Shown here piece by piece: positions 2,433 to 26,405 of a stretch of 26,551 nt of DNA. Position 1 is the stretch's first letter, and each line of letters begins with the position of its first letter. A program made the translations under genes and the position numbers. This DNA comes from a virus. Its lineage: Duplodnaviria; Caudoviricetes. The notes beneath the pieces are model-generated. The model ran no database searches. It was not told the DNA's origin and saw nothing but the letters and a program-made list of their open reading frames with translations. The stretch covers positions 1-26,551 of the IMG/VR virus record IMGVR_UViG_3300020045_002813; one strand, 5' to 3'.

Positions 2433-2456
2433 AAAGTAACTTTATAAAGTTACTTT
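2433..2456. promoter_or_regulatory. Doubled AAAGTNACTTT site (24-bp perfect palindrome)
   Basis: AAAGTAACTTT-AT-AAAGTTACTTT; the same unit recurs at least 11 times in the window. Confidence 0.7.
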
Positions 2457-2638
2457 CAAGCCTGACGAGGACTCTCTTCGTCAGGCTTTTTGTATTCAAA
2501 CAGCCTGTAGCTATCTATAAGTATTCGAATCATTTCACTTTTTGACACGCCCAATCGAGCACAACTAGCTTCCAGCTTCGCTAGATAGAATTCTGGAAGT
2601 GTTATCATCACAGCTTTTTTATTAGGCTTTATAGTCAT
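2456..2638 (-). CDS. Ribbon-helix-helix (CopG/Arc/MetJ-like) DNA-binding protein
   Basis: 60 aa 'KKAVMITLPEFYLAKLEASCARLGVSKSEMIRILIDSY' fits the RHH pattern (alternating beta strand, L..L...A...G.S.S..IR..I). SD AAAGGAG and its own promoter. Confidence 0.8.
   Translation of the reverse strand: MTIKPNKKAVMITLPEFYLAKLEASCARLGVSKSEMIRILIDSYRLFEYKKPDEESPRQA
2460..2491 (+). terminator. Rho-independent terminator on the + strand, overlapping the 3' end of the antisense RHH gene
   Basis: GCCTGACGAGGA-CTC-TCTTCGTCAGGC (one G.U pair) followed by TTTTT. Confidence 0.75.
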
Positions 2639-2682
2639 ATCACTTTCTCCTTTACAAGACTTTATTAATGAGTTATATATTG

Positions 2683-2711
2683 AATATACAGGCTTGTTAT
2701 ATATTAGTCAA
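2683..2711 (-). promoter_or_regulatory. Sigma70-type promoter for the RHH gene
   Basis: Minus strand TTGACT (2711-2706), 17 nt, TATATT (2688-2683). GTTATATATT direct repeats lie at 2672-2681 and 2696-2705. Confidence 0.65.
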
Positions 2712-2733
2712 ATACTTTATAAAGGAGTGAGAG

Positions 2734-3159
2734 ATGGATCTTAAAAAGGTTTATGGATTTTCGAAGAAACTGGCTGAGGGTGGAGCACGTATGGTCATCG
2801 GACCTGACGAGGAGAACGACTTCCTTCTGGTTCGTCGTATCCCAAACGATTCTTACAAAGCTCGGATGAGTGTTGTCATGATGGCTAACAAGAAGCAACT
2901 TGACATCCTCAAGGCTCAAGACGAGAAAGCACATGCTGCGAAAGACGCTGAGATATTCTGTGAAGTCCTGGCCGATACTGTACTCATTGGCTGGGGTGCC
3001 GGGATTACTGAAGGTGGGGAATCTATCCCCTACTCAACAGAAGCTGCTAAGAATCTCCTCCTGAGTTACCCTGAATTCCGAAGCGACATCGTTGACTTCG
3101 CTACCTCAAAGTCAAACTATCCCCTCGAACCGGATGTGGATGATATAAAAAAGAATTAA
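2734..3159 (+). CDS. Tail assembly chaperone (lambda gpG-like)
   Basis: 141 aa between the tail tube and tape measure genes; 'LADTVLIGW.G....GESIPYSTEAAKNLL..YPEF' motif; ends in slippery A AAA AAG. Confidence 0.85.
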   Translation: MDLKKVYGFSKKLAEGGARMVIGPDEENDFLLVRRIPNDSYKARMSVVMMANKKQLDILKAQDEKAHAAKDAEIFCEVLADTVLIGWGAGITEGGESIPYSTEAAKNLLLSYPEFRSDIVDFATSKSNYPLEPDVDDIKKN

Positions 3160-3515
3160 GCCGATATTTAGAGTGGGAACTTGAGTGGGGAGCACAACTC
3201 CCCACCCTTCTTCAGTACCAGGAACAATTCGGCAAGACTCCGCAAGCCCTCTACGACAGACCAACTATCTTCTTTTATTACACGGAGATATACAGGCACT
3301 TCCTCGTTTTATCATCTTCAAGATCTCACTACACAGAATCCATCCCTACCAAAGGCTTCGGGACACAGACTTTCCGAAGACCTAATCCAATTGACATCAC
3401 AGCAATTCTCAGCTACAATAGGCACATAGCAAAGATTCTTAGTGCCGAGGACTTCCTTGATATTATCCAAACCCTCGACACTTTATATTTAAGAAACTCT
3501 TTTAAAAAGAGGTAG
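3147..3515 (+). CDS. -1 frameshift extension of the tail assembly chaperone (gpGT-like), absent from the ORF track
   Basis: Heptamer A AAA AAG at 3147-3153. The -1 frame is open for 120 codons (ELSRYLEWELEWGAQLPTLL...HFLVLSSSR...PNPIDITAILSY...LDTLYLRNSFKKR) to TAG at 3513-3515, 3 nt before the tape measure ATG. Confidence 0.85.
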   Translation, partial: KKELSRYLEWELEWGAQLPTLLQYQEQFGKTPQALYDRPTIFFYYTEIYRHFLVLSSSRSHYTESIPTKGFGTQTFRRPNPIDITAILSYNRHIAKILSAEDFLDIIQTLDTLYLRNSFKKR

Positions 3516-3518
3516 AGA

Positions 3519-6500
3519 ATGGCTGTTCAAGTACAAATAAATACTCAGCAAGCCCAGCAACAAGTAAACGCTCTGACTGCTGCTTTTCAACAATTGCGTA
3601 CTGGGGCAACTGGTTTGCAGACTGGGTTCAATCAACTCACTACAGTAAATGCTACTTTAACAGCACAACACAAAAATTTAACAACAACTGCTAGTGCTGC
3701 TGCTAAGTCATTAACTTCTTTGACTACAGCAATGCAAAATAATAAGACAACACTAACACAAAATACAAACTCATTAAACACTAATACTGCTGCTAATGCT
3801 AAAAATACTGCTAGTATAAGAAACAACCAAGCTGCTGTTGCAAGTCTTACTGCCAGTTTTGCAAAACTGACTCCTATGATTACTGCTTTGTCCACTACCA
3901 TAGCAGCAGCTAACGCAGCATTAACAGCTCAGACAGCTATTATAACTTCAAATGCTGGAGCTACTACCAGAGCAGCAGCTAGTGCTGGAGTAATGACTCA
4001 ATCTATGAGATCACTTCACGCAGCAGCCAGAGGAGCTTCTGGTGCTATGGGGAGTTTGTGGCTTACTTATGGGCAGACTATATTACCGATGGTTACTGCC
4101 TTTGCTGCCGTTGGATCTGCCATGCAGATATTTAAGAAGGGGACTGAGTTTGAATGGCTGAATACGTTCTCCTCATCCTTATCAGAAGGGGCTGTCTCTG
4201 CTGGTAAGTTAAATGAAAAACTTTTAGAAATGAAAGGAGTAGGGCAGACTCCTACCCAGTTAGCTAAAGGTTTCCTGGAACTACAGAAAGCAGGGCAAAG
4301 CGTAAGTGCGTCTTTAGAAAATATAGGAACAGTAAGTAAGTATTCAGCAGTTGCTCAGTTAGATTTAGGTCAGGCCACAGAACAGTTAGTAACTATAACC
4401 ACAGCTTTTGAGAAAACTTCTAAAGGTGCTGCTGGTGGTATGTTAACTGTAGCTGATACTGCTGATATTGTTGCGTACTCTGCTCAGAAGTCTACTGCCT
4501 CTTTCTCTGATATGCAAGTAGCTTTCAGATATATGACAGGTACTGCCAGTACAGCAGGGTTCTCGATACAAGAAGTAGCTTCTGCTTTGATGGTTATGGC
4601 TAATCACGGTCTTAAAGGGTCTATGGGAGCAACCAGTCTTAGGACTGCCTTTGAAAGATTGATAAACCCAACACATAAAGCCTCTGAATTATTTAAGGCT
4701 GCCGGAGGAAATTTATCTGCTATTTATGAAGATGGGCAGTTCCAAGGAATACAAAGTATAGGTAAAGAATTAGAAAGATTAAAAAACACGATGAGTGCTA
4801 GATCTTGGTCTGAGTTCTCTTTTCAGACTTTTGGAATGCGTGGTATGCAGGTAAACGCACTCGTAACAGATATTGCTAATTTAGATAAAAATCTGAAGAA
4901 CATAGCCGAATCAGCAGGGTTTGTAGATAGAACTTTCAGTCAGTTATCAGATACTACAAAAATGAAAATGACTGAGCTTGCTGCTTCTTTCGAAAGAGCT
5001 TTTATTAAAGCGTTTGAAGGAGAGAAAGCTAGGGAAGTTATTAATGATCTCAATAGAGTTATTTCTGATCAAGGTTTTGCAACCTCTCTCGAACATATAG
5101 CTACAGGTGCTTTTGGTTTAACCAAGTCCTTTGTTTGGATGGCTGATAAACTTTTGAGCTTGCCCACTTGGGTACTTGAGGGAGGTGTAATAAGCGCATT
5201 CTTCTTTGGTATGGCTGGTAAGTTGGTCATAGCTGGATTATTGGCCGCTGCTACTGCTATAGATGATGTTATTAATAAGATGAACGAGGCGGAAGCTACT
5301 TACAAGAAAAACACCGAGATAGGCGGAGAGCAGTACGCTAAATTGAATAAGCAGTTGTTAGAAACAGAGACAAGAATAGCAGCTATAAAATCCCAACAAT
5401 CAGACACATCTATAGCTGGGAGTTTGGCAGGCGATATGTCTGGTGAGCTGGCTAAGGAGTTGAAAAATCTTGATTATATAAAATCTCAAATAGAGAATTA
5501 CAAAATAACTACTAAGTCAACCACAGCAGATGGCTCAAATTCTAATGCTCTAAAGTCACTTTCAGACTTCCACGATAAGAAAGAGCTGCTTGAGGAGCAG
5601 TCATATATAGACTCTGTTAAGCGAGAGCAAGCTAGAACAGCCAAAGACATAGTAATGGTTAATGAGAGGGAAGAGAACAAGAAGAAGAAAGCCGAGGATT
5701 CACATACAAAGCTAATGAATCTTACTTCAGAACTAGAAACATTTAATGCTAACTCTGATAACAAAACTCTAGGTACAAGATTAGAAAATATAAGTAAGTA
5801 CGAAAATGCCCAAGAGTTATTTATAAAAAATTCCAGCGCAACTGAAGCGGAGAAAGAGAAAGCTCTCTTAGAGTTGCATAAGAAAACTACTACTCAGATT
5901 CAACAAGCCAACGAAGAACAAGCAAAGAAAGATGAAGATAAAGCATCAAAAAGATTACTGCTTGAAGAAAAACTTAATTCTGAAATAGGTCTTTCAGATG
6001 ATATAAGATTAGCTAGAAAGTTAAGTAAACTAGATGAGGAATATTATAAAACTGTAGAAACAATAAAGAAAACTTATGACGCTGAGAAAGAGTCCTATGA
6101 GCTTGAAGAAGCTATGGACAAAGCATTTCATGATAATGCTATTCAGCGTGGTGAGTTGATGACTCAACAGCGTATAAAAGAAGCTGACGCTATAAGAGAC
6201 TTCAATACAGAACTCAGAGAAATGGCTTCTGACGCTGGAGTTGGTGGACTTTCTGAGTTGGATAAAGAGTTAGCAGATATTCAAGACAAGTTTGATAAGA
6301 TGCTTGGTAAACTCAAGAAAGATGGAGTTTCTGGCGAAGAGTTTGATGAAGCTGCTAAACAAGCAGCCAAGTTAAGAAAAGAGATGGAGGATATTGCCAA
6401 AGCCAAACTAGGCGACGACATCTTCGCAGGTTTCATAGCTGGTCTTAAAGAATCTCAACGTGAAGCTATAACTCTTGGCAAGATAGGTGCTGAATTAGGT

Positions 6501-9500
6501 AGAACTTTCACCAGCGAATTAGCTACAACCTTCAAGGATATATTCACAGGAAGTAACGAGAACAAGTACGCTGATGAGATGGTTACTATCTCAGAGAAAA
6601 TAAAACAGATGCAGTATGAGTCTTTAGAGGGTGGGCTTGCACAACTCGAGTGGTTGCGTAAAGAGTATGATGCTTCTCTTGAAGGTGCAATGTCTGGTAA
6701 CGAAGATATGTTCCAGCAATACACTTCCAACCTTGACGAATATCTAGCTAAAGCTAAAGAGAACATGTCTCCAGAGGAGTATGCAGAAGTCTATGCTAAA
6801 ACTATGGATGACCTTAACAAACTCAATGAGGAATACGCTGATAATACTGAATCCACATGGGAACGTATAAGCGACTCTTTCGGAGATATGGCTGATCGTA
6901 TCCTCGATAAGTTCATGGATATGATAGCTCAAATGGCTGCTCAGGATTTGATGAACATTGTTTTAGACTCTACTCCTGGAGTGACAACTAGCGGTGGGAA
7001 CTCAACAACTAACACTATAACATCGGCTATAAACAGCATAGACTGGAGCTGGTTGAGTGATAGTTCTAGCTCAGGCATGGACTCAACATGGGGGGATAAC
7101 GGTGATTATACCTTTGCTGATGGTGGAGTTACTGGTTACGGAAAACTTCAAGGTGGGTCAGGAACTACTGATGATCTTTATCTTGGGAAAGTGAATGGTA
7201 AGAGAGTCTTAGCCAAAGGTGGAGAGTACATCATGCCGCCAGAGCAGACTAATAAATACTTACCTATGCTTGAGCAGATGCGAACAGGTGCAGCTTTAGC
7301 GTTTGCTGATGGGGGTATGACTTCCAGTAGACGTGCGACATCTTCTGGTAATATGTCACTTGAAGACTTGATTTCGTTGTTCCGGCAACTGTCTGAGAAC
7401 GGTTTTATGTCTGTTGATGCTATGAGAGAGTTGACCAAGACAACTCATCAGGTAACAGACGCCAACAGTAGAGAAACAGAAGTTAAAGACAAATCTCTAC
7501 AAACTACTCAAGCATCTACTCAAGCAATACAATCATCTACTCAAGTTTCAAAAACACACACGCAAACCACTAAAAGTTTTGCACAATCTGTTGAAGATGC
7601 TACAACTAAAACGTTTAACTCCATAGCTACAAGTAAGGCTTTAGGATTAGCAATAGGAGCATTAGCTTCTGCTACAAGCCCTGTTATAGGTATTCTTGGT
7701 ATACTTGGATATAACATGGCTAAGGACACTGAGCTTGGAAAAGAGCTTGGAAAGGCTTTTGGATCTCTTGGAGAAGTTGTTGGTGACTTGGTGGGAGGGG
7801 TTGTTGGAGCTGTAGCTGAAATAGGAAGTGCTGTAGCTGATATGGTGGGATTCGCAGGAGCTGCGCAAGAAGCCTCTCAGTCTATGGGGTTTGCTCAATT
7901 TGATTATGATGCGTCTGAGTTTTCCACAGACTACTCATATGGTTATTTAGATAATAGTTGGTCCCCCGGCATGAATCCTGATAATAATGCCCATGGTATG
8001 CTTGGAGATCCTGATATAGATTCAAGGGATAGAACTGATGATACAACTCCCGGAGGATTACTTGGAGATTGGGGAGGGGGAAACGAAAACGATAACGATC
8101 AGGATAGTGGTAATGCCAAGGGGGGCTGGCTAGGTAAATACGGATCTGGTTGGATAAATCAAGGTAACGGCTATGAAGACGATGTATATCTTGGAACTAT
8201 GGGCAACACCAATTCTTATGGAATGGGCGGTGAATTTGTAGTTAATAAACGCTCCGCTGCTAAGTATGCTGGTTTGCTTGAGATGGTGAACAAAGACTAT
8301 GCTGATGGTGGTACTATTGGACCTTCATACTTGGAAGCTAGCGTATTAGCAGGGTCTGCTCTATCTCAATACAATAGCCAAATCACAGTTATAACAGATG
8401 ACATGGAGGATAATCTCAGGGACATTGCTAAGATAACCGAAGATGTCATTTATACTTTTATAACTGAGACAATGGACGATCTGACTAAAGAGATCTTCGA
8501 CCTTAACAAATCTTACGACGAACAGGTAAAAGAACTTAAAGACTTAGAGGCTGCTGAATCTGATTATGCCCTAGTTGAACAAGCAAGGAATCTTGAGCTT
8601 AATAAAATACAAGAAGAGTACAACAAAGAGCAACTAGAAACTGCTAAAGAAATGGCTGATGAATTAGCTGATATGATGTACGATATTCGCTATGACTTGC
8701 GTGTAGGAACTTTAGAAGATTTTCAACAATCCATACAAGGTATATGGGAAACACAGAAAGAGACAGTAGCTAAGTTAAAAGAACTTGGAGCTTCGTTTGA
8801 AGAAATAAGAGAAGCTGTAAGTCTTACTTGGAGAAAGATAAACGAAGAATTATTACAACAGGCTAAGGATGAATTAACGGACGCAACCCAAGTATTAAAA
8901 GACGCTTTCTCAGCAGAGAAGGACTCCATAACTACTCGCTACGAGGAAGTTATGAAAGGACTTAACGAACAGCTCTCTCTGGCGAACGAGAAAGTATCTG
9001 AACTTGAGGGTATAATATCGGCACTTGACAGTGCTCTCGATACCTTAAAAGGTTCCGATGTACTACAAGAAAATACTTTTAGAACAGCACAAGCTGATCT
9101 TAGACGTAGAGGTCTGTCTGGTGATATTTCTGAAGGACTTGATAAAACTCTTTCAGAAGCAGTAAAATTTAGCACAGATTATTATTCAACTGGAGCAGAC
9201 TATAAAATAGCTTTGAAGAAATCTGTAGGGTTTACTGAGAACTTAAAAGATTTGGCAACTGAACAATTAACAACAGCCGAAGCTCAAGTAGCAACAATTG
9301 AGGCACAAATAGAGATGGAAGAAGCCAGCTATAATGCAATGATAGCTTCTCTTGATTCTCAATTAAACTCATTGCTTGGTATTGAGACTACTGTCATGTC
9401 AATAGCTGATGCCATAGCTATGTATAACAAAGCATCTGCTGCTGTTAGTGCCGTTGCTGGTTCTGGTGGAGGCGGTACAACGTTTAATACTTCTGATTAT

Positions 9501-10115
9501 ATTCAGGCCAAAGCAGAATCTTTAGTTAAAGGCGGCTGGGCTACCAGCGTTGAAGAGGCTGCGAATATGTTCTTACAAGCGTTGACTAAGGACGGAGTAA
9601 CCCCATATCAGCATTATCAGCAATGGGGGGAGATGGAGAATGTGTACGGGCTGTCCAGCAGAGACTCTGCTATGTCTCCTACTCAATATGGGTCTGGCTC
9701 ATTTAACACTGCCGACTATATCCAGGCAAAAGCAACAAGCCTATTTGATAGTGGATACGCTGTTTCTATAGAATCGGCAAAAGAGGCATTCCTAACAGCT
9801 ATAGCAAAAGATAGTGTAACCCCAGAACAACACTTCGCAGCCTGGGGAGCTTCTGAGGGAATATACAGCTTCGCCACAGGCGGCAGTTTTTCTGTTGACG
9901 GACCATCAGGTATTGACAATCTAGCTATTCCTAATGTAAGATTGACAGCAGGTGAGGTAGTTAACGTGACAAGTGGAGATACCATGAAGGAACTGAAAGA
10001 GGAGCTGGCTGCTCTCAGACAGGTGATGGCAGCTATAGTTTCTAACACTGCCGTTACTGCAAAGCAACTTTCAAGATGGGATGGGGATGGTATGCCTGAT
10101 GTGAGGGTTGTATGA
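3519..10115 (+). CDS. Tail tape measure protein
   Basis: 2198 aa, Ala-rich and helical; TP901-like core ('ADIVAYSAQKSTASFSDMQVAF', 'MANHGLKGSMGATSLRTAFERL'), long coiled coils and FA.GG C-terminal motifs. Confidence 0.95.
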   Translation: MAVQVQINTQQAQQQVNALTAAFQQLRTGATGLQTGFNQLTTVNATLTAQHKNLTTTASAAAKSLTSLTTAMQNNKTTLTQNTNSLNTNTAANAKNTASIRNNQAAVASLTASFAKLTPMITALSTTIAAANAALTAQTAIITSNAGATTRAAASAGVMTQSMRSLHAAARGASGAMGSLWLTYGQTILPMVTAFAAVGSAMQIFKKGTEFEWLNTFSSSLSEGAVSAGKLNEKLLEMKGVGQTPTQLAKGFLELQKAGQSVSASLENIGTVSKYSAVAQLDLGQATEQLVTITTAFEKTSKGAAGGMLTVADTADIVAYSAQKSTASFSDMQVAFRYMTGTASTAGFSIQEVASALMVMANHGLKGSMGATSLRTAFERLINPTHKASELFKAAGGNLSAIYEDGQFQGIQSIGKELERLKNTMSARSWSEFSFQTFGMRGMQVNALVTDIANLDKNLKNIAESAGFVDRTFSQLSDTTKMKMTELAASFERAFIKAFEGEKAREVINDLNRVISDQGFATSLEHIATGAFGLTKSFVWMADKLLSLPTWVLEGGVISAFFFGMAGKLVIAGLLAAATAIDDVINKMNEAEATYKKNTEIGGEQYAKLNKQLLETETRIAAIKSQQSDTSIAGSLAGDMSGELAKELKNLDYIKSQIENYKITTKSTTADGSNSNALKSLSDFHDKKELLEEQSYIDSVKREQARTAKDIVMVNEREENKKKKAEDSHTKLMNLTSELETFNANSDNKTLGTRLENISKYENAQELFIKNSSATEAEKEKALLELHKKTTTQIQQANEEQAKKDEDKASKRLLLEEKLNSEIGLSDDIRLARKLSKLDEEYYKTVETIKKTYDAEKESYELEEAMDKAFHDNAIQRGELMTQQRIKEADAIRDFNTELREMASDAGVGGLSELDKELADIQDKFDKMLGKLKKDGVSGEEFDEAAKQAAKLRKEMEDIAKAKLGDDIFAGFIAGLKESQREAITLGKIGAELGRTFTSELATTFKDIFTGSNENKYADEMVTISEKIKQMQYESLEGGLAQLEWLRKEYDASLEGAMSGNEDMFQQYTSNLDEYLAKAKENMSPEEYAEVYAKTMDDLNKLNEEYADNTESTWERISDSFGDMADRILDKFMDMIAQMAAQDLMNIVLDSTPGVTTSGGNSTTNTITSAINSIDWSWLSDSSSSGMDSTWGDNGDYTFADGGVTGYGKLQGGSGTTDDLYLGKVNGKRVLAKGGEYIMPPEQTNKYLPMLEQMRTGAALAFADGGMTSSRRATSSGNMSLEDLISLFRQLSENGFMSVDAMRELTKTTHQVTDANSRETEVKDKSLQTTQASTQAIQSSTQVSKTHTQTTKSFAQSVEDATTKTFNSIATSKALGLAIGALASATSPVIGILGILGYNMAKDTELGKELGKAFGSLGEVVGDLVGGVVGAVAEIGSAVADMVGFAGAAQEASQSMGFAQFDYDASEFSTDYSYGYLDNSWSPGMNPDNNAHGMLGDPDIDSRDRTDDTTPGGLLGDWGGGNENDNDQDSGNAKGGWLGKYGSGWINQGNGYEDDVYLGTMGNTNSYGMGGEFVVNKRSAAKYAGLLEMVNKDYADGGTIGPSYLEASVLAGSALSQYNSQITVITDDMEDNLRDIAKITEDVIYTFITETMDDLTKEIFDLNKSYDEQVKELKDLEAAESDYALVEQARNLELNKIQEEYNKEQLETAKEMADELADMMYDIRYDLRVGTLEDFQQSIQGIWETQKETVAKLKELGASFEEIREAVSLTWRKINEELLQQAKDELTDATQVLKDAFSAEKDSITTRYEEVMKGLNEQLSLANEKVSELEGIISALDSALDTLKGSDVLQENTFRTAQADLRRRGLSGDISEGLDKTLSEAVKFSTDYYSTGADYKIALKKSVGFTENLKDLATEQLTTAEAQVATIEAQIEMEEASYNAMIASLDSQLNSLLGIETTVMSIADAIAMYNKASAAVSAVAGSGGGGTTFNTSDYIQAKAESLVKGGWATSVEEAANMFLQALTKDGVTPYQHYQQWGEMENVYGLSSRDSAMSPTQYGSGSFNTADYIQAKATSLFDSGYAVSIESAKEAFLTAIAKDSVTPEQHFAAWGASEGIYSFATGGSFSVDGPSGIDNLAIPNVRLTAGEVVNVTSGDTMKELKEELAALRQVMAAIVSNTAVTAKQLSRWDGDGMPDVRVV
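9483..9866 (+). repeat. Two ~55-aa repeats (73-aa period) in the tape measure C-terminal region
   Basis: FNTSDYIQAKAESL...LTKDGVTPYQHYQQWGEMENVY (from 9483) and FNTADYIQAKATSL...IAKDSVTPEQHFAAWGASEGIY (from 9702). Confidence 0.85.
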
Positions 10116-10697
10116 AATTACTTAGACCTACTGAAATAACTGACGCTATACTTGTGTCAACAAATGTTGCTGAGACTGAGTACGCTACTTGGTCGGCAGC
10201 AACAACGTATGACGTGGACGCAAAGGTTATTAAAAATCATGTTATTTGGGAGTCGTTACAGACTAGCAATACCAATCATGATCCTGAAGAAGCTGAATCT
10301 ACTTGGTGGGCAGAGTATTCAGCTACTAACGCTTGGAAAATGTTTGACTCTAAAGTAGGTTCGCAAACAACAAATGCAAACTCCATAGAGTTGGAACTTC
10401 TTCCTGGAAGAGTATCTGGTATAACTTTTCTCAATCTGTCAGCTACTTCTATAGACATAGTTATGACTGATCCTGAAGAAGGAGAAGTTTACAACGAGAC
10501 TATAGACCTTACTGATGATACTGTTGTTTATGACTTATACACTTACTTTTTTGAGCCTATAAGACAGACAAAAAACAAGTTCATAGCTTTACCAATCTTC
10601 TCCATTAATAATTTATGGATACTATAGAGACTTTAAAATAACAGTACAGTTTTATAATGAAAGTACGTGTGAACTTGAACTTGAAGGATTAACATAA
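10112..10697 (+). pseudogene. Tail-tip protein with a CBM5/12-like N-terminal motif; frameshifted and probably internally deleted near 10600
   Basis: The first frame (MKLLRPTEIT...WSAATTY...ATNAWKMFD...YFFEPI...LPIFS) stops at 10627. The +1 frame 10599-10697 encodes SPLIIYGYYRDFKITVQFYNESTCELELEGLT*, which resembles the usual C-terminus of this family and ends just before the next SD. Confidence 0.65.
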
Positions 10698-10709
10698 TAG
10701 AGGTAACAA

Positions 10710-12416
10710 ATGAGCATAACAGCATTACCAACACCTCCTAGTAGACAAAGACCAACAACTTTTTCGTCTGAAGGCGATACCTTCCTAGCAGCATTGCCTA
10801 CGTTTGTAACTGAAGCTAATGACCAAGCAGCAGACATAGCCAGCACAGCAGATGAAATAGATGTGAATGTAAACTCTGCTTACCTAGCAGCACAAACAGC
10901 CAACTTTAAAGGAGTCTGGTCAGACCTTACAGGGGCGTTAGCTATACCATCATCTGTCCTTCACTCAGGGTCTTATTGGATGTTACTTTCCAATTTAGCA
11001 GACGTTACTTTAAAAGAGCCAGGTGTTGATCCTGAGTGGGAGGTTATATCTATAGATACTTCTTCTACAGGTGGAAAGAAAGTATGGAGCGTTTCAACAA
11101 ATACAACGCTAACATCTGAAAGGCTAAACTTAATAACAACAACAGTTGATAATTTGTATATTTCCCTTCCGTTACCAACAAGCAGTAAAGAAGGTGGACC
11201 CCTGTATGTATTGTCAAATACTGGAGACTATAAGTTTTATGTAAAGAATTATGACGGAGATATTATAGGAGAGCTTGAACAAGGAGCTACCGCTATTATA
11301 ATGCTTGACGACTCAGCAGATAAAAAATATAGTTTTCTTAATGTAAATCTTGATCATAACTCTATTTCAACTGGAACTCCCACAGTAATAAAAACATCCA
11401 CTACAACTTATTCGTCTGCCTGTATGGTAGCTAGCAATAAAGTTTTGGTTGTTTATGTAGTAAGCACAACTATGTATGCTGTTGTTCTCACGATAAGTGG
11501 ATTAGATATATCCATAGGAGCTGAAGTTAGCCTAGCTACAGTAAATTCAAAAAAACCAGTAGTCTGTAGGGTAGAAGATAATAAAGCATTGGTTACATAC
11601 TGCGCCACTTCTACAGTCTACGCAACTGCCGGTATAATAACTGTTACTGGTACAGTACCAGCTATGGGAACCCCTATATCTATAAACTCTACAAGTTGTA
11701 CCGTTTATGATTTAATAGGTATAGACACAAACAAATTTGTTGTAGCCTATGCCGAGACTACTAGTGGCTATTGTAGAGTTATATCTATTTCAGGAGCAAC
11801 TATAACTGTTGGTACTGCCCCTACTGCCACTACTGTAGATAATGCTATTGATTTGTACCTTACAAAAATTTCAGCAAGTAAATTCTTATTCACGTTTAGT
11901 GCCACACTTTATACAAAGGTCGGAACCATAACAGACACTTCTATATCTTTAGGTTCCCAGGTAGCACTTAGCGGCAGTAGCTATTATTTTAGCTACATAG
12001 TAGTAGAGTCAGAAAGCCTTATATACTGCTGTAGTTATACTGCTCTTGCTACTGATTACTCTTCTGCTGTGTATAGAGAATTCTCCATAACTGGTACAGT
12101 TATATTGCAAACTAATACTATAACTTTACCGTCTAGCTTTTTAACTACTGGTGAGGAAGGGTTTACTAGGGTAGATCTTCAAGACGGAAGACATTTATTT
12201 GTTAAGACTTTAACTGAAGGTTTAGAGGTTTATACGGCGGCTACTAGGGGTAAAGATGTGCCTAAACATATAGGAAGTTCAAGAGTAATAGGTGTTACAA
12301 AACCGTTGTCTAATAAATATAAGTCCCTAGTAACGGTAGATACAAACACGTTTGTAGTAATGTGTGCTGCTTCGTCTCCAGCTTATGAGATGGTTTTCGT
12401 TGTAAAGGTGGGGTAA
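10710..12416 (+). CDS. Tail fibre / receptor-binding protein
   Basis: 568 aa. N-terminal 'ITALPTPPSR..PTTFSSEGDTFLAALPTFVTEAN' anchor, 'NFKGVWS' motif, and ~48-aa beta repeats (NKVLVVY / NKALVTY / NKFVVAY / SKFLFTF) suggesting a beta-propeller. Confidence 0.75.
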   Translation: MSITALPTPPSRQRPTTFSSEGDTFLAALPTFVTEANDQAADIASTADEIDVNVNSAYLAAQTANFKGVWSDLTGALAIPSSVLHSGSYWMLLSNLADVTLKEPGVDPEWEVISIDTSSTGGKKVWSVSTNTTLTSERLNLITTTVDNLYISLPLPTSSKEGGPLYVLSNTGDYKFYVKNYDGDIIGELEQGATAIIMLDDSADKKYSFLNVNLDHNSISTGTPTVIKTSTTTYSSACMVASNKVLVVYVVSTTMYAVVLTISGLDISIGAEVSLATVNSKKPVVCRVEDNKALVTYCATSTVYATAGIITVTGTVPAMGTPISINSTSCTVYDLIGIDTNKFVVAYAETTSGYCRVISISGATITVGTAPTATTVDNAIDLYLTKISASKFLFTFSATLYTKVGTITDTSISLGSQVALSGSSYYFSYIVVESESLIYCCSYTALATDYSSAVYREFSITGTVILQTNTITLPSSFLTTGEEGFTRVDLQDGRHLFVKTLTEGLEVYTAATRGKDVPKHIGSSRVIGVTKPLSNKYKSLVTVDTNTFVVMCAASSPAYEMVFVVKVG

Positions 12417-12418
12417 AT

Positions 12419-13757: not shown

Positions 13758-14225
13758 ATGGGACTTTCTTTTTCATGGCCTGGAACTATTAAAGGCGTTG
13801 TTCAAGCATTAGCAGGATCAACTTTTGTAGGTTCTATTTCTGGAGCAAGTAGCTTCACTGGTACAACTGTATCTGCCACTGGATCTATCGGGTATGCAAC
13901 TGGGGCTGGTGGTGCTGTAACTCAGATCACCAGTAAAGCAACAGGAGTTGAACTCAACAAAATTTGTGGAGCTATCACTACCCATAACGCTACTCTTAAC
14001 GCTGGCGTTGAAGTTACTTTCGCCGTAGCTAATACCACCTGTGCTGCTACTGATGTGGTAGTTGCTTGTGTAAAGTCTGGTGAGGCCACCCCAGGTTCAT
14101 ACGCTGTTGTAGCAAGTGAGCCTACCGGGACCGGCTTCAACCTAACCATAAGTAACCTCACTGCCGGAAACCTTGGAGAGGCACTGGTGATCAACTTCAT
14201 CATCATCAAGTCCGTGGCGGCATAA
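13758..14225 (+). CDS. Putative virion structural/decoration protein
   Basis: 155 aa, Gly/Ala/Thr-rich, 'GAGGAVTQITSKATGVELNKICGAITTHNATL...INFIIIK'; strong SD AAGGAG; followed by a long hairpin. Confidence 0.55.
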   Translation: MGLSFSWPGTIKGVVQALAGSTFVGSISGASSFTGTTVSATGSIGYATGAGGAVTQITSKATGVELNKICGAITTHNATLNAGVEVTFAVANTTCAATDVVVACVKSGEATPGSYAVVASEPTGTGFNLTISNLTAGNLGEALVINFIIIKSVAA

Positions 14226-14290
14226 AAGTTACTTTACATTTTTGACCGAAGAGGGTAAAGTTACTTTATAAAGTAACTTTACCCTTTTTC
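14225..14290. promoter_or_regulatory. Three AAAGTNACTTT units, two forming a 34-bp perfect palindrome that may also act as a terminator
   Basis: AAAGTTACTTT at 14225-14235; AGGGTAAAGTTACTTTATAAAGTAACTTTACCCT at 14252-14285, followed by TTTT. Confidence 0.7.
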
Positions 14291-16768: not shown

Positions 16769-16769
16769 C

Positions 16770-17633: not shown

Positions 17634-17635
17634 CT

Positions 17636-19174: not shown

Positions 19175-19222
19175 TTTATACTTAACTACTATCTTGCAAC
19201 CACATAAAAATAAAGGAACAAT

Positions 19223-19759
19223 ATGAAACCAATGAAACCTGATTACTTCTGGCCTATACTTAACAGCTTACTTATTGTCTGCGTCATGCTTGCTACTTCA
19301 GGGTGTGCAGATCAGAGTATCCGTGAACTCAACACGCAGATCATGGAGAGCAATTCTCTTTCAAGGATTGCCTACGCTGAAGGTATTGCGGCTTGTGGAG
19401 ACAATGCAGCATGTCAGGTCGGAGTAACGGCCTCTTACTTTTCAACAGCAGGGCAGCAGCTCGTTAAGCCAGACACTAGCTTGGATTACGTCAAAGCAAC
19501 ACTCCCGTTCGCGCAGCTTGGTTTACAGGCTTTCGGAATGTACTGGTATGGTCAGGGGAATGGTACATCCGGTGATCGTGCATCGACCTACGTCAAAGGG
19601 GACGGGAATACTTTCGTCATGGGGAATAAACTCACCGCCGACAATCAAGGAAGCACAGCACTGTCGTTTTCGCAAGCCTACACTCGAAGTTGGGATGGTG
19701 GATATAATCGTGAGTACACCAACCAGGAACCGATTATGACGCTGGAGGGGACTGAATGA
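19223..19759 (+). CDS. Lipoprotein of unknown function
   Basis: Hydrophobic N-terminus ending in a lipobox-like ATSG-C; SD AAGGA. Confidence 0.6.
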   Translation: MKPMKPDYFWPILNSLLIVCVMLATSGCADQSIRELNTQIMESNSLSRIAYAEGIAACGDNAACQVGVTASYFSTAGQQLVKPDTSLDYVKATLPFAQLGLQAFGMYWYGQGNGTSGDRASTYVKGDGNTFVMGNKLTADNQGSTALSFSQAYTRSWDGGYNREYTNQEPIMTLEGTE

Positions 19760-19968
19760 AATGTGATTTTTGCGGTGGGCCAGATGGAACGGATTGTGGC
19801 AGTTTGATGTTTCAATGTCCAGAATGTACCAGGAAAGCCGGTATAGACGCAATGCCTCTGCCTCAGCGAACTGTTTACAAAATGAAAGATATTATAAGAA
19901 ACTTTCGCGCAACTTTTGCTTGTGCTGCCACCATTCGAGAAGCAAGAAACAAGGCGGCTAAATTATGA
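19756..19968 (+). CDS. Small zinc-ribbon protein
   Basis: 70 aa, CDFC...CPEC; ATGA-coupled on both sides. Confidence 0.55.
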   Translation: MKCDFCGGPDGTDCGSLMFQCPECTRKAGIDAMPLPQRTVYKMKDIIRNFRATFACAATIREARNKAAKL

Positions 19969-20384
19969 TAAAGTTACTTTCAATTCTCCTGTTGCTCCCC
20001 TCTCTCCTCTACGCTGGAGAGAGGGAAGATAATTGGGGAAGGTTCAAAGCTGGGGTAAGAGATCAGGTTATGGAGGAACATAAAGTTACTTTCATAACCT
20101 GTTATTTTACCGGGGTAGCAGTTCCGAAGGAAGCAATTCAGATCGACCATGTAGTGCCTGTCAATGTAGCAGAAAAATTAGGTGCTCTCAAATGGAGCAT
20201 GGATAAACGTAGAGATTTTTTTAATAATCCTGTAAATTTAGTTCCAGTAATAGCCGGATTGAATTCTTCTAAAGGGGATAGAAATCCAAAATCATTCCTC
20301 CCGAAGATCAATAAAGAAGACTACTTAAACAGATGGGAAACTATCTGTGCCTTATACCAAATGGATTGCTCACAGGAGTTCTAA
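19965..20384 (+). CDS. Secreted HNH endonuclease (DUF1524-like)
   Basis: Signal peptide MIKLLSILLLLPSLLYA; 'CYFTG..IQIDHVVP..A...GA..W...RR.F.N.P.NL..V...LNSSKGD'. Confidence 0.75.
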   Translation: MIKLLSILLLLPSLLYAGEREDNWGRFKAGVRDQVMEEHKVTFITCYFTGVAVPKEAIQIDHVVPVNVAEKLGALKWSMDKRRDFFNNPVNLVPVIAGLNSSKGDRNPKSFLPKINKEDYLNRWETICALYQMDCSQEF

Positions 20385-20755: not shown

Positions 20756-21188
20756 TGAAATTAAACTTGAAGTACCGTACTTCATGCAATACTATTGGCC
20801 TCATACCATACGCATTGAAGACTTCCCAACTTACTGTGGGGCCGGTGACGGTATTGGAGATGCCTTAGTACCTGATAGTATTTATGGGATGAGAGTAGCT
20901 CCTGCCTGTCTTATTCATGATATTGATTGGCTAGTTTCTTCTGGAACTTATGCTGGTTTCTGTAGAGATAATGCTAGATTTCTTAGAAATCTTTTAGCAA
21001 TACGAGAAGTCAATAAAGATAAGTTTCCGTATCTCAGATATCTAGGATGCTACAGATATTACGGAGCAGTTCAATTATTTGGCCATAAAAATTACTTTCC
21101 TGTCGAATATAATCGTAAAGACCCAATGTCAACTCCAGCAATAAAGGAAAAATTATCAAAACTATATCGGAGTACCGCCAATGTGTAA
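20730..21188 (+). CDS. DUF1353 / prokaryotic phospholipase A2-like protein
   Basis: 152 aa, 'YCGAG...VPD.IYG....ACLIHDIDW...G.......NARFLRNL...YYGAVQLFG'. Confidence 0.6.
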   Translation: MKHVTINYSEIKLEVPYFMQYYWPHTIRIEDFPTYCGAGDGIGDALVPDSIYGMRVAPACLIHDIDWLVSSGTYAGFCRDNARFLRNLLAIREVNKDKFPYLRYLGCYRYYGAVQLFGHKNYFPVEYNRKDPMSTPAIKEKLSKLYRSTANV

Positions 21189-21603
21189 AATAGCAGAACT
21201 TAAAGTATTAGTTGTAGAATCAGACGATAATGAACTTGAGAAAACTTGCGCCAGCTTGGTTAAACTCGGAGTAGAAATGGTTGTCTGTGTTCACAGTTAC
21301 AAGGATGCTATGACAATTATTGAAAGTGATAAGGACGTTGATCTGGTAATAGCAGACCTCAGACTTGAGAACTTCAAACCCGCTGGTGTGTTCTTGTGCG
21401 AAATGGCGAAGAAAACCAGACCTGATCTCCTCTTCATCATAAGTTCAAGATGCTCTGGAGTTGCTTTTTTAGGGGAATCAATGTATGCTGGAGCTGATGC
21501 CACAGTTGACACCTCAAATCCCGAAGAGGTAGACATAACAATGAAACGCTGGCTTGGTCTAGCCCAGAAACGACGAGAAGTCGAAGCCATAATTAAGGCA
21601 TAA
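21181..21603 (+). CDS. Stand-alone response-regulator receiver (CheY-like) domain protein
   Basis: 140 aa: KVLVVESDD, DLVIADL (phospho-acceptor Asp), G..LC, PDLLFIISS, AGADA; the conserved Lys-Pro is absent. Confidence 0.8.
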   Translation: MCKIAELKVLVVESDDNELEKTCASLVKLGVEMVVCVHSYKDAMTIIESDKDVDLVIADLRLENFKPAGVFLCEMAKKTRPDLLFIISSRCSGVAFLGESMYAGADATVDTSNPEEVDITMKRWLGLAQKRREVEAIIKA

Positions 21604-21613
21604 GGAATTGATA

Positions 21614-21991: not shown

Positions 21992-22461
21992 TGAATTTTA
22001 TAGAAGAATTAGAAGCAAGAGTTCCGTTTGTTTACTCTGACTCTAAGGGTTTACCAACGATTGGAATTGGCCACTGTTTGACTAAGAGTGAACTCTCTTC
22101 CGGCAAAATCATAATCAAAGGCATACCTGTTAAGTATTCTCAAGGACTTACCGATCAACAGATTGATGACCTGTACGATCAAGACCATAGGTTTGCTGTT
22201 GATGCCGTCAACAAACATGTGAAAGTAACTTTGACAGACAATCAATTCGCAGCACTTACGAGTTTTGTTTTCAATATTGGAGCTTCGGCTTTTGCCAACT
22301 CTACACTTCTTAGGAAACTAAACCAGGGACTCTATTCAGAAGTCCCTGGTCAGATGAGAAGATGGAAATATGAAGACGGTAGAATCTCTCAAGGGCTTAT
22401 CAATCGCCGGGAGAAGGAGATTCAGTTATGGTTAAAGGGGAGTAGTTCTCCGCAAATATAG
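21991..22461 (+). CDS. Endolysin, GH24 phage lysozyme
   Basis: E-x8-D-x5-T triad (E-ARVPFVYS-D-SKGLP-T-IGIGH), 'QFAALTSFVFNIG', 'STLLRKLN', 'GLINRREKE'; no SAR segment. Confidence 0.95.
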   Translation: MNFIEELEARVPFVYSDSKGLPTIGIGHCLTKSELSSGKIIIKGIPVKYSQGLTDQQIDDLYDQDHRFAVDAVNKHVKVTLTDNQFAALTSFVFNIGASAFANSTLLRKLNQGLYSEVPGQMRRWKYEDGRISQGLINRREKEIQLWLKGSSSPQI

Positions 22462-22785
22462 CTCCAACTCAGCTAGAGCATTCCATGCTTCGTGCGCCAG
22501 ATGAGGTAAGCCTGAATCTTTATCGAACTCTTCCCCTGCTGTCCGGTAGAGAAAGTGTCTAAGTCTAGCATCACCATATCTAGTCTCTCCATTCTCTACT
22601 TTCTGCCATCCTCCCATAGAATATTTTGATGCCCCGAAAGTTCCTACGTCTGACACTGCCAGTAGCGCATTGGCAAACATTCCAAGTATCTGAGCCGCCA
22701 GCGGTTTATTAGCATCCAGTTTAGCTCCAGGATCTTTAGGAGACTTCCCATTAGGGTCAAGTTCTTGAGCAAACACAGCGGTCAT
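22432..22785 (-). CDS. dATP/dGTP diphosphohydrolase-domain protein (DUF5664)
   Basis: 117 aa, 'GAKLDANKP', 'VGTFGASKYS..GW', 'DKDSGLPHLAHEAWNAL'. Confidence 0.85.
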   Translation of the reverse strand: MTAVFAQELDPNGKSPKDPGAKLDANKPLAAQILGMFANALLAVSDVGTFGASKYSMGGWQKVENGETRYGDARLRHFLYRTAGEEFDKDSGLPHLAHEAWNALAELELYLRRTTPL

Positions 22786-22931
22786 TTCTTTTCCTCCATC
22801 GCTTTTTTGAGTAAGGTCATACCTCTTATAATAGAGGCTTTAGCTTCCAATAGTTTCTCAAGATTCTTAACATCGACATCTTTCAAACTCATTAACACTT
22901 TTGTTAACTCTTCAATAGCTTTCTCAATCAT
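22782..22931 (-). CDS. 49-aa hypothetical helical protein (below the ORF-track cut-off)
   Basis: MIEKAIEELTKVLMSLKDVDVKNLEKLLEAKASIIRGMTLLKKAMEEKK*; ATGA overlaps with both neighbours. Confidence 0.7.
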   Translation of the reverse strand: MIEKAIEELTKVLMSLKDVDVKNLEKLLEAKASIIRGMTLLKKAMEEKK

Positions 22932-24196
22932 GATACGTCCACCAACCATTTGATTTCTTCATAAGTATTAGCCTCGTCTTTATCGTTAAACCTAGTCTCA
23001 ATAAAGCGAGCGTGAGTCATGCCATAGGTTTCACTACCTTTCGCCAAACTCAATCCAGTTATCCGCACAGTTACTATATCACCAGCATGAGAGTTCCACC
23101 AATCAACTCCCAGATTTCTATCAGCATCAGTGAAGCCCCCTCCAACATAACCAACTACCAAACCTTCTTTCGACTTAACAAGCAGTCTTCCCATAACCTT
23201 CTCGTACTTGTCACCAACATCACCATAGAGTGCCTTGACTATCTCCATCTCAATATCTGAATGAGGTTTGCATTTACAGCCGTACTTTGTACCGCTTGAC
23301 TCATCCTTCCACTTCAGGAGGTTAGCAACCTTGATCATTGCACCTTCTTCACCTCGCTTCTTAGCCTCTGAGTAGTAGTCCAGAGCTTCATCAAGTGACT
23401 TGACATGTTTGCTTTCTGATATGATCATGTTACTTGGCAGTTCCATAGACCTAAGTTCTATGAATGTATCATAGTAAGTTTTATCTGACTTTCCTGCTCT
23501 GAAATCTTCTTTAGTTACGAACCCCCAGGTAACATACACAACGTCATGCGTTACTGGTCCACCTTGGATAATGCTGTTGAGGATTCCGTTTCCGACTGCC
23601 CTCGGCATATACCGTCCGTCGATGTCAACTACCAACAGCTCTCCCATAAAGATCTTATCAAGCCCTACAAAGCCAGGAACCTTGAATCTCGAACCATTAC
23701 GAGTGAGGAAACTTCCATCCTCCATCAGATATGAAAACATGCCATCATATTTAACTTGAACCAGAACAGTATTACCTTCAAATTTTATCTTGTCAACATC
23801 TTTGAAAGATGAAAACCTTTGATAAGGAACTCTGAAAATGAGATCCTTCCAGACCTGATTTACGAGCTTTGCCCCTACTCCACATTTCAGATCCTTTTTC
23901 AGGATACGATTGACAACTTCTCTTGCTCTTGGGTCTGGACCTACTGCGTTTGATAAATTTTTAGCTTCTGCATGTGTGCACGATCCTTTGTTACTTAAAC
24001 AAGTCAAATACTCAAGTGGATCTACAATTCCCTCGTATTCAAACGGTGGTAGCTCTGTCAAATGATAATACTTATCCTGATCCAGCGCATATTTAAACAA
24101 CGCTTTGTATCCAGGGTTAGCTTTCAATATTTCTTTCTTCTCGTTACTTCCATCAGCGTTGTCAAGTTTAGTAAGCACATTGTAAAAATTAATCAT
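22928..24196 (-). CDS. ATP-dependent DNA ligase
   Basis: 422 aa; motif I VKYDG, 'TRNG', 'FMGEL', 'EGAMIK', 'KCKP', OB-fold 'VGGGFTD', 'HARF...RFNDK'. Confidence 0.92.
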   Translation of the reverse strand: MINFYNVLTKLDNADGSNEKKEILKANPGYKALFKYALDQDKYYHLTELPPFEYEGIVDPLEYLTCLSNKGSCTHAEAKNLSNAVGPDPRAREVVNRILKKDLKCGVGAKLVNQVWKDLIFRVPYQRFSSFKDVDKIKFEGNTVLVQVKYDGMFSYLMEDGSFLTRNGSRFKVPGFVGLDKIFMGELLVVDIDGRYMPRAVGNGILNSIIQGGPVTHDVVYVTWGFVTKEDFRAGKSDKTYYDTFIELRSMELPSNMIISESKHVKSLDEALDYYSEAKKRGEEGAMIKVANLLKWKDESSGTKYGCKCKPHSDIEMEIVKALYGDVGDKYEKVMGRLLVKSKEGLVVGYVGGGFTDADRNLGVDWWNSHAGDIVTVRITGLSLAKGSETYGMTHARFIETRFNDKDEANTYEEIKWLVDVS

Positions 24197-24393
24197 TGTG
24201 GAATCTCCTCATGGTGATCATTGGTTAAAACTTCTACTGTCTCTCCGAATGGAAATGTTATCCTGTATCCATCTGTCTTCTCTTCTCTGCAAATATCAAT
24301 TAAGATTCCACAAAGAAATTGTGTTGTCTTATCAACTCCATCTGCTACTATACATAACTTAATAAGTTTTATTAACGGTGTTCCGAATCTCAT
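24193..24393 (-). CDS. Hypothetical protein
   Basis: 66 aa; ATGA-coupled on both sides. Confidence 0.6.
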   Translation of the reverse strand: MRFGTPLIKLIKLCIVADGVDKTTQFLCGILIDICREEKTDGYRITFPFGETVEVLTNDHHEEIPQ

Positions 24394-26405
24394 AGGTCAA
24401 TCACCATGTCGGCGTAGGCATCAAATTTGTCTGAATGAGTGATTATTATCTTTTGACCTGGTATGCTCTCTAAGCAACCCATGATAGCGAAAGTCCTGTC
24501 GTCATCACTGTCGGAGGTTGGCTCGTCAAAAATTATAAATCCACATGTAGGTGCAAACAAAGTCCTAAGTGTATCCCGCATTGCAATCCCGAAGACGCTC
24601 TTTGCAGAACCTGAGAGTGACTTTGCCGACAGACCATTAGCAAGAAATCCCTTCGCAGTCTTCTCAACAGTCGTAGGTTCGTTACGCATAATGGAGAAAG
24701 CATAAGCTGCTGACTCTAACACAGTGCCCCAGACACTGTTTAGCACCTTCGGCTTTGCATCACGCACTGACTTCAGGATCTTCGAGTTGCGTTCGTCAAG
24801 CCGTAACCTCTTCGTCAGATCAGCGTGATTCACCTTCTCTTCTTCAATTCTGTTCTGGAGATTGGAGACTGCTGTTCTATGCTCAGTCAGTCTAGCTATC
24901 TCTCCTTGATTCTGTCTCGTCAGTTGTTCTATCATGGCTGTCAGATCTTGGATGTTTATTGTCAATGCTCCTATTAATTGTTGCACTTCCTCAGTTGATT
25001 TCTTTTCCTCAATAACAATGCCTTTAACTTGCATAAACTTAGTCGCTGCTTTGTTATTAAGTTCAACCAACTTAGCAGAGTCTTCTTTCCGCTGACGTTC
25101 TGAGTTAATATTATCTGAAAGTAACTTCGAAGCAGCCAAGATCTCAGCGTCTTCAATTACAACAGGTTCCACACCTACCCACTTATATCTGTGGGGAACT
25201 ACTGACTTATCCACCTCAACATTAATGTCATCAATGTTTGGCCTGTTCTTATGTGATCTCTGAACACTGTCAATTAAAGATAAATAATTGTCTGTCTGTT
25301 TTGTTTCAAAAGACAATTTAGATTCCTCGTTGATGTACCTTTCAAGATCCTCCTGGAGTTTCTTATTGTGTTCCTCTTTCTTTTTACTTATGTCTGATCC
25401 ACACAGAGAACATACATCCTCGTTAGACATACTGTTGCGAGTCATCTTGATCTTGTAATGCGCAGATCCTAGATCAGCATACAATCTCTTTTTCTTTTCA
25501 GTTTGTTCAGTTATCTCCTGCTGAAGAGACTCAGGAGATCCTTCCCACTCATCACCAATAGTAAAGGAGTCAACGAGTTTCTTCAAAGCTATAAGCCTAC
25601 GAGATTCAGCAGCTCCTGAAATTGTAGCCTCTGCTTCCTTCAGATCTTCTTTGGGGATTGATAAATACTCTTTTGCTGTTAGTACGTCAATCTCCTTGTT
25701 GATTTCAGAAATTGTTAGCTCAAGCGAAGACTTATGTTGAACAGCAAGGTCAACTGAGTTGTTGTGTTTAGTGGCTTCTAACAAGGCATTGTTTGCATTC
25801 ACTAACAGCGTGTTAGCAGCACGTAATGATAACTCTTTTTCTTTTATAACAATCTCAGTGTCTATAATGTCTAGTTCTATCTCATCTTCATCAAGCTCCT
25901 CAGATTTGTTTTTGAGTTCTTCGTTGAGCTTCGTTGAGGTGTCTTCTGACTTCACTATCATCTCCTCGATAACAGCCTTTGATCCAGAAGGGAAAGTTAC
26001 TTTCACTTTTTCAATCAGGTCGTCTATCTGGGAGAACCCCGCTGCTGCCTCTATGAAAGCCACTGCCTCGCCCTGACGCTTGGCAATTACTCCGGCAGTG
26101 TCACCCTGCTCAGACACCAGAACGTAGCTCTCAGCTCCTTTGGCAAGCCCGAACAGCTTGTAAAAGAACTGAGAGACTTCCTCCTGACCTGAGATCTGAA
26201 CTCCGTTGCCTATCACAGAAGCAGAGGATGGTGATCGCTTCACCGTGTATGGGCCATAGTCCAGCTCGACCAACATCTTCTTCTCACCAAGGCGAATCTG
26301 CTCGGCAACTGTGACCTCCAGAGTGGAAGCTCCAAACATAGCATATAGCGGAGCCTTTGAAAAAATCGTTGATTTGCCTGACTCATTCTTTCCTCTTACC
26401 CCAAC
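24390..26405 (-). CDS. SbcC/Rad50-like recombination ATPase (T4 gp46 / T5 D13-like); native N-terminus apparently missing
   Basis: Walker A GKNESGKST, coiled coils with a CSLC zinc hook, signature LSGS, Walker B FIIFDEP, H-loop IITHS. Confidence 0.9.
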   Translation of the reverse strand, partial: VGVRGKNESGKSTIFSKAPLYAMFGASTLEVTVAEQIRLGEKKMLVELDYGPYTVKRSPSSASVIGNGVQISGQEEVSQFFYKLFGLAKGAESYVLVSEQGDTAGVIAKRQGEAVAFIEAAAGFSQIDDLIEKVKVTFPSGSKAVIEEMIVKSEDTSTKLNEELKNKSEELDEDEIELDIIDTEIVIKEKELSLRAANTLLVNANNALLEATKHNNSVDLAVQHKSSLELTISEINKEIDVLTAKEYLSIPKEDLKEAEATISGAAESRRLIALKKLVDSFTIGDEWEGSPESLQQEITEQTEKKKRLYADLGSAHYKIKMTRNSMSNEDVCSLCGSDISKKKEEHNKKLQEDLERYINEESKLSFETKQTDNYLSLIDSVQRSHKNRPNIDDINVEVDKSVVPHRYKWVGVEPVVIEDAEILAASKLLSDNINSERQRKEDSAKLVELNNKAATKFMQVKGIVIEEKKSTEEVQQLIGALTINIQDLTAMIEQLTRQNQGEIARLTEHRTAVSNLQNRIEEEKVNHADLTKRLRLDERNSKILKSVRDAKPKVLNSVWGTVLESAAYAFSIMRNEPTTVEKTAKGFLANGLSAKSLSGSAKSVFGIAMRDTLRTLFAPTCGFIIFDEPTSDSDDDRTFAIMGCLESIPGQKIIITHSDKFDAYADMVIDL

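Follow-up and report, generated by a model that had tools for sequence, protein, structure and literature searches.

The 11-letter word AAAGTNACTTT, a mirror-symmetric sequence dispersed along IMG/VR virus record IMGVR_UViG_3300020045_002813 (Caudoviricetes; positions 1 to 26,551, analyzed as a whole and referred to as the window), probably serves as the site at which a ParA-less dimer of the ParB/Noc/KorB type is loaded; the phage itself would encode this protein, in the half of the genome that lacks sequence. A probability of roughly 0.6 was assigned to this reading. The word was enriched far above expectation, was placed inside as well as between genes, coincided with residues that differ from those of relatives, and co-occurred with an orphan ParB-type protein in three other phages. 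For the window phage, an uncultured long-tailed phage of which the 26.5-kb fragment represents an estimated 33%, the assignment is likely, as judged from three points: its word is identical, the copies are likewise dispersed and placed within genes, and its relatives lack the word together with the gene. The cross-lineage evidence for a link between protein and word is better than that for the window phage itself.

The window contained 11 exact copies of the word, every one at the coordinate reported in an initial annotation of this DNA, against a mean of 0.13 and a maximum of 2 in 100 dinucleotide shuffles. The expectation under a fifth-order Markov model was 0.2, and the strong enrichment that the annotation had estimated by hand (fewer than 0.1 copies by chance) was thus borne out. 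With up to one mismatch allowed, 16 occurrences were found versus 2.05 expected, including one-mismatch words at 10061, 21088, and 24614 that were absent from the annotation. Of the near copies that it did list, those at 14010 and 25118 stood, while the one at 2261 was in fact located at 2259 and had two mismatches, as many other words do, and was given no weight. The architecture of the word is a perfect 5-1-5 palindrome, AAAGT-N-ACTTT, and no other gapped palindrome with arms of 5 bases exceeded three copies in the window. Its centre base was A or T in 10 of the 11 copies, its flanks were mixed, and the commonest single mismatch in the window and its close relative G002 was a change of the outer A to G (6 of 9).

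Six exact copies were located within genes. In contrast, 0.95 were expected when synonymous codons were resampled with the protein fixed (maximum of 4 in 3,000 replicates), and 0.064 under codon shuffling (maximum of 2 in 1,000), so that the enrichment persisted under codon-preserving nulls. Chance and codon artefacts were ruled out as the source of the copies by these counts together with the shuffles. The proteins of the window permit the word at eight places, where it was exact in six and one base off in two. The intragenic copies occurred in frame 0 four times (as KVTF or KVTL) and in frame 2 twice (as LKSLS and IKLLS), with one of them in a minus-strand gene, which matches the earlier description of different frames and both strands. 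The five intergenic copies were composed of one single copy and two doublets, and the identical 13-bp spacing noted for the doublets was also recovered.

Comparison with relatives revealed a restricted distribution of the word. G002, which shares 84-92% DNA identity with the window, had 10 copies in 21.5 kb: it retained all seven of the shared exact sites, was exact at the position corresponding to 24614, and included two further copies in replication genes. More distant relatives (56-61% tube identity) were found with alignment A1. The word was missing from G001 (69.6 kb), G008 (74.8 kb), and G009 (34.2 kb), and occurred once in G010 (81.3 kb); similarly, a search with the ParB profile A4 identified no ParB-type gene in these four genomes. 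Their palindromes were just ordinary, clustered, and operator-like. Clusters of AATTA-N4-TAATT and TAGGTG-NN-CACCTA, for example, were located near the primase or early region (G008 230-7372, G010 6166-7760, and G001 19550-19625).

The protein sequences also differed at the sites. In the SbcC-like gene, the window encodes KVKVTF where four motif-less relatives encode KVEEAF, RIKETY, KIKEVY, and KVKSKY; at the 24614 site it has a serine where all four have an arginine (KSLSG versus RLSG). Elsewhere, VEVTF replaces the EVGF or ETGF of motif-less relatives. These differences suggest that proteins were altered to create sites. Together with the excess over the codon nulls, they uphold the proposal of the initial annotation that selection acts on the DNA itself, and the retention of AAAGT-N-ACTTT by such selection is supported. 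Additionally, related contigs from three runs had nine variable positions within 19965-20120 and none within the two sites there, a comparison of weak power.

The same word was found in unrelated phages. A scan for doublets covered half of the viral collection and returned 124 loci, 43 of them at least 10 kb long. Only one of these 43, G003, had seven dispersed clusters. This myophage fragment spans 62.8 kb and carries the word 36 times (consensus TTAAAGTWACTTTAA), with 19 of the copies located 3-6 bases ahead of an ATG, and a match between PolA proteins was all that it shared with the window and G002. G003 encodes a 366-aa protein with ParB_N and HTH_ParB domains, whose best matches among solved structures were Noc, Spo0J, ParB, and KorB. 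The model of this protein had a confident core (predicted local distance difference test score of 83) and KorB as its top Foldseek match (8qa9, E 3e-11). Two features of a KorB-type system were observed, namely a ParB-family fold with a CTP box and a helix-turn-helix (HTH), for the G003 protein only, and palindromic sites that are dispersed both within genes and outside them.

In a blind test, viral contigs were scanned with homologues of the G003 protein alone, and the DNA word was not consulted. The alignment used, A5, was built from 17 of 150 homologues, picked for shared N-domain motifs. Among the 23 loci obtained, three had an exact genome-wide set of sites, or lattice (7-11 copies per 20 kb), while the other 20 had zero or one copy. 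The three were the seed G003, G316 (31 copies in 80.5 kb), and the complete G317 (12 copies in 45.1 kb). G316 is related to G003, with about 40 shared proteins. Apart from the ParB-type protein, G317 has no protein in common with G003 or G316, and it shares nothing with the window; most of its sites were within open reading frames (ORFs). Flank and centre varied by lineage, with a T flank and an A/T centre in G003 and G316 and mostly a C flank and a G/C centre in G317. The sites of G316 were more evenly spaced than random (P=0.0015). In every lattice record the sites ran the full length of the sequence, and a single centromere region of the ParABS kind was not observed. The G003 junction consensus was found only in G003, and two short blastn probes against cultured phages gave single chance-level matches only.

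The three proteins have an H-I-x-D-C signature in the recognition helix, which was present in 0 of 18 other alignable loci (P=0.0008; noticed afterwards). In a phylogeny from which rows L310 and L325, which have no alignable GHRR box, were omitted, the proteins of G003, G316, and G317 grouped with weak support (77/88), together with one motif-less long-branch row. A ParA gene (AAA_31, PF13614) was not found in G003 (76% complete), G316 (95%), G317 (100%), G318, or G001, while the control was positive in 14 of 14. Classical partition is therefore not supported, and regulation or genome organization and protection is more likely than partition. The suggestion of partition or genome-organizing sites in the initial annotation was its closest guess: it agrees with the co-occurrence of the word and an orphan ParB in three other phages, but no ParA was found there. 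Its more general view of the word as a site for a dimeric protein is supported as well. In contrast, its stoperator-like alternative fails because the word is symmetric.

In the proposed mechanism, each HTH of a ParB-type dimer would read one AAAGT half. By analogy with KorB and BisD, the clamp would bind CTP, close, slide over the DNA between sites, and act on distant promoters, and a site every 2-4 kb would allow an infecting or replicating genome to be coated. Such a protein would most likely be a KorB-like genome-wide regulator and organizer rather than a driver of ParA-dependent partition. The clade with the lattice may have gained the gene horizontally and built its sites afterwards, with the cheap intergenic gaps and terminators (the doublets) coming first and the genes later.

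Several observations weigh against the assignment of the word to a ParB-type clamp. A ParB-like gene or stand-alone DNA-binding domain was not found in the window and G002, which cover ~37 of about 80 kb, and the link for the window phage is therefore indirect. A scan for the missing half with the primase alignment returned just three known relatives, and the tube alignment identified no prophage among the 401 genomes searched, all from one phylum. Since G316 is a relative of G003, just two independent lineages combine an orphan ParB with a lattice. Most of the ParB-homologue loci without a lattice (20 of 23) had no perfect dispersed palindrome of any kind, and the new lattices found, 2 of 22 versus 0 of 42 doublet-selected loci, gave P=0.11 only. 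The helix signature was a split chosen post hoc. Genes led by a Shine-Dalgarno (SD) sequence comprised 12 of 16 in the window versus 6 of 46 in G003, 3 of 57 in G316, and 3 of 38 in G317; the hosts of the window phage and of the other three are thus probably different, and transfer across host groups or convergence must be assumed. Pairs of the word also occurred singly at many unrelated bacterial promoters, and therefore other HTH proteins can read it. Even spacing was not significant in the window (seven clusters, coefficient of variation 0.56, P=0.21) or in G002, G003, and G317. Finally, the conservation at synonymous positions proposed as a check in the initial annotation did not reach significance against G002, as 1 of 14 third positions differed at the sites versus 450 of 1,875 (24%) in the background (P=0.12).

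Another phage protein that converged on the word, either the ribbon-helix-helix (RHH) protein encoded beside doublet 1 or an unseen HTH repressor, would turn the lattice into dispersed operators or roadblocks, and this was considered unlikely. The RHH protein had been named as a candidate for binding tests in the initial annotation, and its gene abuts doublet 1, with a junction-like word at its promoter. Tandem doublets fit cooperative RHH binding. Its beta-strand reads AVMITL in the window and TIPVTL, IIPVNL, or IVPVNL in relatives, so that a change of specificity is possible, and similar word pairs lie ahead of unrelated regulators, such as a MarR-like gene (family name assigned by eye). However, orthologues at the same position in G001, G008, and G010 (42-46% identity) were accompanied by 0, 0, and 1 copies in 70-81 kb and by no other dispersed palindrome, and the RHH protein is therefore disfavored as the reader. 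As a CopG-type operator, the word is disfavored for the same lack of co-occurrence between site and gene across relatives. Moreover, the RHH promoter has no full site, and a 10-base word identical to that of the ParB-linked lattices would be a coincidence if another protein were the reader.

Reading in trans is another possibility: a ParB-type protein supplied by the host, by a resident prophage, or by a co-infecting element could dock at the sites, which would then act as decoys or let the phage hitch-hike on that protein. The lack of a reader in cis in the window and G002, the recent origin of the lattice within the phage family, and the occurrence of word doublets with 13-bp spacing in a satellite-like island of G005 and in a Desulfovibrio metagenome-assembled genome would fit this account, but it too was judged improbable. 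The gene is in cis in three other lattice phages, and the ParBs of G005 and G011 are distant, with a best E of about 1e-23 versus 1e-62 to 1e-84 in the lattice phages. Host-wide enrichment was not found: across 301 genomes from a single phylum the count never exceeded 18 per genome, and the bacterial loci of the doublet scan had three dispersed clusters at most. The word was likewise not enriched in five other genomes or in 120 doublet loci from 9 of the 64 parts of the genome collection; the protein atlas gave no usable host taxon, and look-ups of ParB clusters gave one generic name. A role as a marker of module-exchange points, or in RNA as a terminator stem or translation-start context, had a very low probability. 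Related contigs do converge with the window at the sites at 2433, 2446, 13180, and 19965, or no more than 5 bases from them (upstream of 2433 or 2446 their DNA differs), the hairpin of doublet 2 is strong and precedes T5, and about half of the G003 sites lie just ahead of an ATG. However, 6 of the 11 window copies are inside genes, most of them far from boundaries, as are most G317 sites inside ORFs, and a conserved site beside a conserved gene ends an alignment unaided. Single copies cannot fold alone because of their one-base centre, and no RNA family or tRNA was found.

The individual sites are listed in Table 1. With its last base, doublet 1 overlaps the RHH stop codon (minus strand), and it lies 94 bp past the stop of the tail-tube gene. 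It begins one base past a weak hexamer that resembles a sigma70 -10 element (9 of 12). Both doublets overlap weak promoter-like matches at chance level. Doublet 2 had a predicted RNA hairpin of -24.5 kcal/mol (z -7.8) within a 90-bp block identical in G002. The doublets probably do double duty, as in the case of doublet 2, which is also a terminator-like hairpin. The doublet-junction word reported in the initial annotation was confirmed to be present.

Table 1. Copies of the word and associated features in the window.
Feature	Position	Strand	Description
Doublet 1	2433..2456		pair of copies at 13-bp spacing; together a perfect palindrome of 24 bp
RHH_1 gene, 60 aa	2456..2638	-	weighed and disfavored as reader
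Doublet-junction-like word TACTTTATAAAG	2713..2724		overlaps the chaperone SD and adjoins the RHH promoter (-35 at 2711, minus strand); less than a full site
Exact copy	5552..5562		LKSLS in frame 2 of the tape-measure gene; codon-usage probability 0.007
Exact copy	13182..13192		gene 13026-13745, KVTF; aligned G008 stretch reads differently
Near copy, outer A>G	14010..14020		VEVTF; relatives AEVGF/AETGF
Exact copy	14225..14235		first base is the last stop-codon base of gene 13758-14225; identical in G002
Doublet 2	14257..14280		part of a longer inverted repeat, with T5 after it; directly upstream of the SD of the next gene
Exact copy	19970..19980		codons 2-6 of GmrSD_C/HNH-like gene, IKLLS; probability 0.0085; same in G002 and related contigs
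Exact copy	20082..20092		GmrSD_C/HNH-like gene, KVTF; same in G002 and related contigs
Exact copy	22222..22232		endolysin gene, KVTL; kept in G002
Near copy	24614..24624		SbcC-like gene; a single synonymous difference makes the G002 copy exact
Near copy, outer T>C	25118..25128		SbcC-like gene; same near copy in G002
Exact copy	25993..26003		SbcC-like gene, KVTF; relatives EEAF/KETY/KEVY/KSKY; kept in G002

The genes of the window follow the order of tail terminator, tube, RHH, chaperone, tape measure, tail and fibre genes, and lysis genes, after which dGTPase-like, ligase, and SbcC-like genes are encoded on the minus strand. A close cultured relative was not found in the phage collection, where the tube was at most 30% identical. 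A slippery AAAAAAG at 3146-3152, at the end of the tail chaperone, is followed by an open alternative frame, which would give the usual product of programmed frameshifting. The gene that follows the tape measure (10112-10694) is broken: residues 177-278 of its 307-aa G001 homologue are missing and its C-terminal part is in another frame, while related contigs diverge after 10596, representing either a real deletion or an assembly error. The lysis region includes a gene for a stand-alone response-regulator receiver domain (21181-21603), which is also present in G002 and G009. The last 60 bases of the window (26492-26551) match G002 11125-11184 inverted; this contig end looks chimeric, which accounts for the odd N-terminus of the SbcC-like ORF.

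Palindromes of other arrangements were observed outside the lattice phages. In G318 and in the first 50 kb (of 68.5 kb) of Agrobacterium phage Milano, a related sequence, ACAAAT-N-ATTTGT, occurred four to five times in one promoter-like cluster without a lattice. These copies (MK637516.2 42973-49095; G318 27274-39122) were flanked by TGAC- and TATA-like words, a short distance downstream of a Noc-like gene, and thus offer a related protein-site pair in a cultured system. No dispersed palindrome was found in the 46 of 71 kb examined of Edwardsiella phage ZHS. L311, a 149-kb phage with a ParB homologue, included two dispersed words, TTAAG-NN-CTTAA and GTTTA-NN-TAAAC. Loci L012, L013, L014, L016, L017, L020, and about 50 similar viral loci, from a large phage group, had a tandem array of the AAAGT-N-ACTTT word with a 12-bp period at the post-terminase junction, beside GTGTAA- and TATAAT-like words, with no dispersed copies and no A4 match. 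The satellite-like island of G005 (C1:2744555-2756129; L258, L259) encodes an integrase and a PriCT-2/DUF927 primase, with a resolvase nearby, and contains the word four times, among them a 13-bp doublet whose GC flanks resemble those of G317; its genome has no ParB of the lattice subfamily.

Among known systems, one of the closest likenesses was to KorB of the IncP plasmid RK2, a ParB-family CTP clamp described as loading at OB palindromes near or more than 1 kb from promoters (PMC11790492). KorB was also the top structural match of the G003 protein. However, it differs, as far as the available text describes it, in its word, its plasmid context, and its ParA-type partner IncC, no counterpart of which was found here, and the phage sites are much denser. 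The reader was also not seen in the window phage, and no KorA-like partner was identified, although no search for a co-repressor was made. The arrangement is best read as a variation on the KorB type. Chromosomal ParB/parS and Noc/NBS resemble the phage systems in the combination of a GxRR nucleotide box, an HTH, and a palindromic site, whereas the phage sites are genome-wide and no ParA was found in these phages. The phage proteins also have GHRR, with a histidine at the E78 position, and ENLQR is missing in G003 and G317. In the available sections of one study, hydrolysis is reported to require E78 of B. subtilis and the E111NLQR motif (PMC8494293), and because of these replacements hydrolysis by the phage clamps may be weak and the clamps long-lived.

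BisD of ICEclc is described as an orphan ParB-like clamp that acts at a distance from intragenic, odd-centred bisS palindromes (PMC12409273), but in the portion available it has two sites only and a fused activator domain, versus one site per 2-4 kb here. The published case nearest to the present one is that of Cluster O mycobacteriophages, which carry 34 dispersed 17-bp dyad sites, about one third of them in genes and of unknown function; they are apparently non-temperate and encode a ParB-like domain protein, gp90, which the authors do not connect to the repeats in the parts of the report available (PMC4351075). Their sequence and host differ, and here the word was traced across unrelated phages through the protein. 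The stoperators of Cluster A mycobacteriophages similarly include many sites in and between phage genes, but according to the Discussion of the same report they are asymmetric and oriented with transcription (PMC4351075), unlike the symmetric word of the window. Similar intergenic dyads are mentioned for Microbacterium Cluster EG phages (PMC7302621). Orphan ParBs are described as common on mobile elements, and orphan ParB-fold proteins as common in phages without an assigned DNA target, in the available part of a further study (PMC12704722). The word itself was not found in the literature searched, and neither was a report of genome-wide palindromes associated with a phage ParB, although supplements outside the search may bear on this.

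The novelty lies in a single word common to unrelated phage lineages, probably of different host groups. Dispersed dyad repeats such as those of Cluster O had no assigned reader, and the present analysis offers a concrete protein-site pair, with three proteins, one word, and a candidate recognition-helix signature. The window phage and its relatives, in which one clade with the lattice lies inside a family without it, provide a natural comparison of before and after. A broader interpretation is advanced only tentatively, as somewhat less probable than its negation: a mobile, single-gene, ParA-less, and possibly hydrolysis-poor ParB clamp may move among unrelated tailed phages of different bacterial groups, whose recipients would rewrite their genomes, and even their proteins, with AAAGT-N-ACTTT every 2-4 kb, and would thereby acquire a self-made nucleoid coat that organizes, regulates, or shields their DNA in the course of infection.

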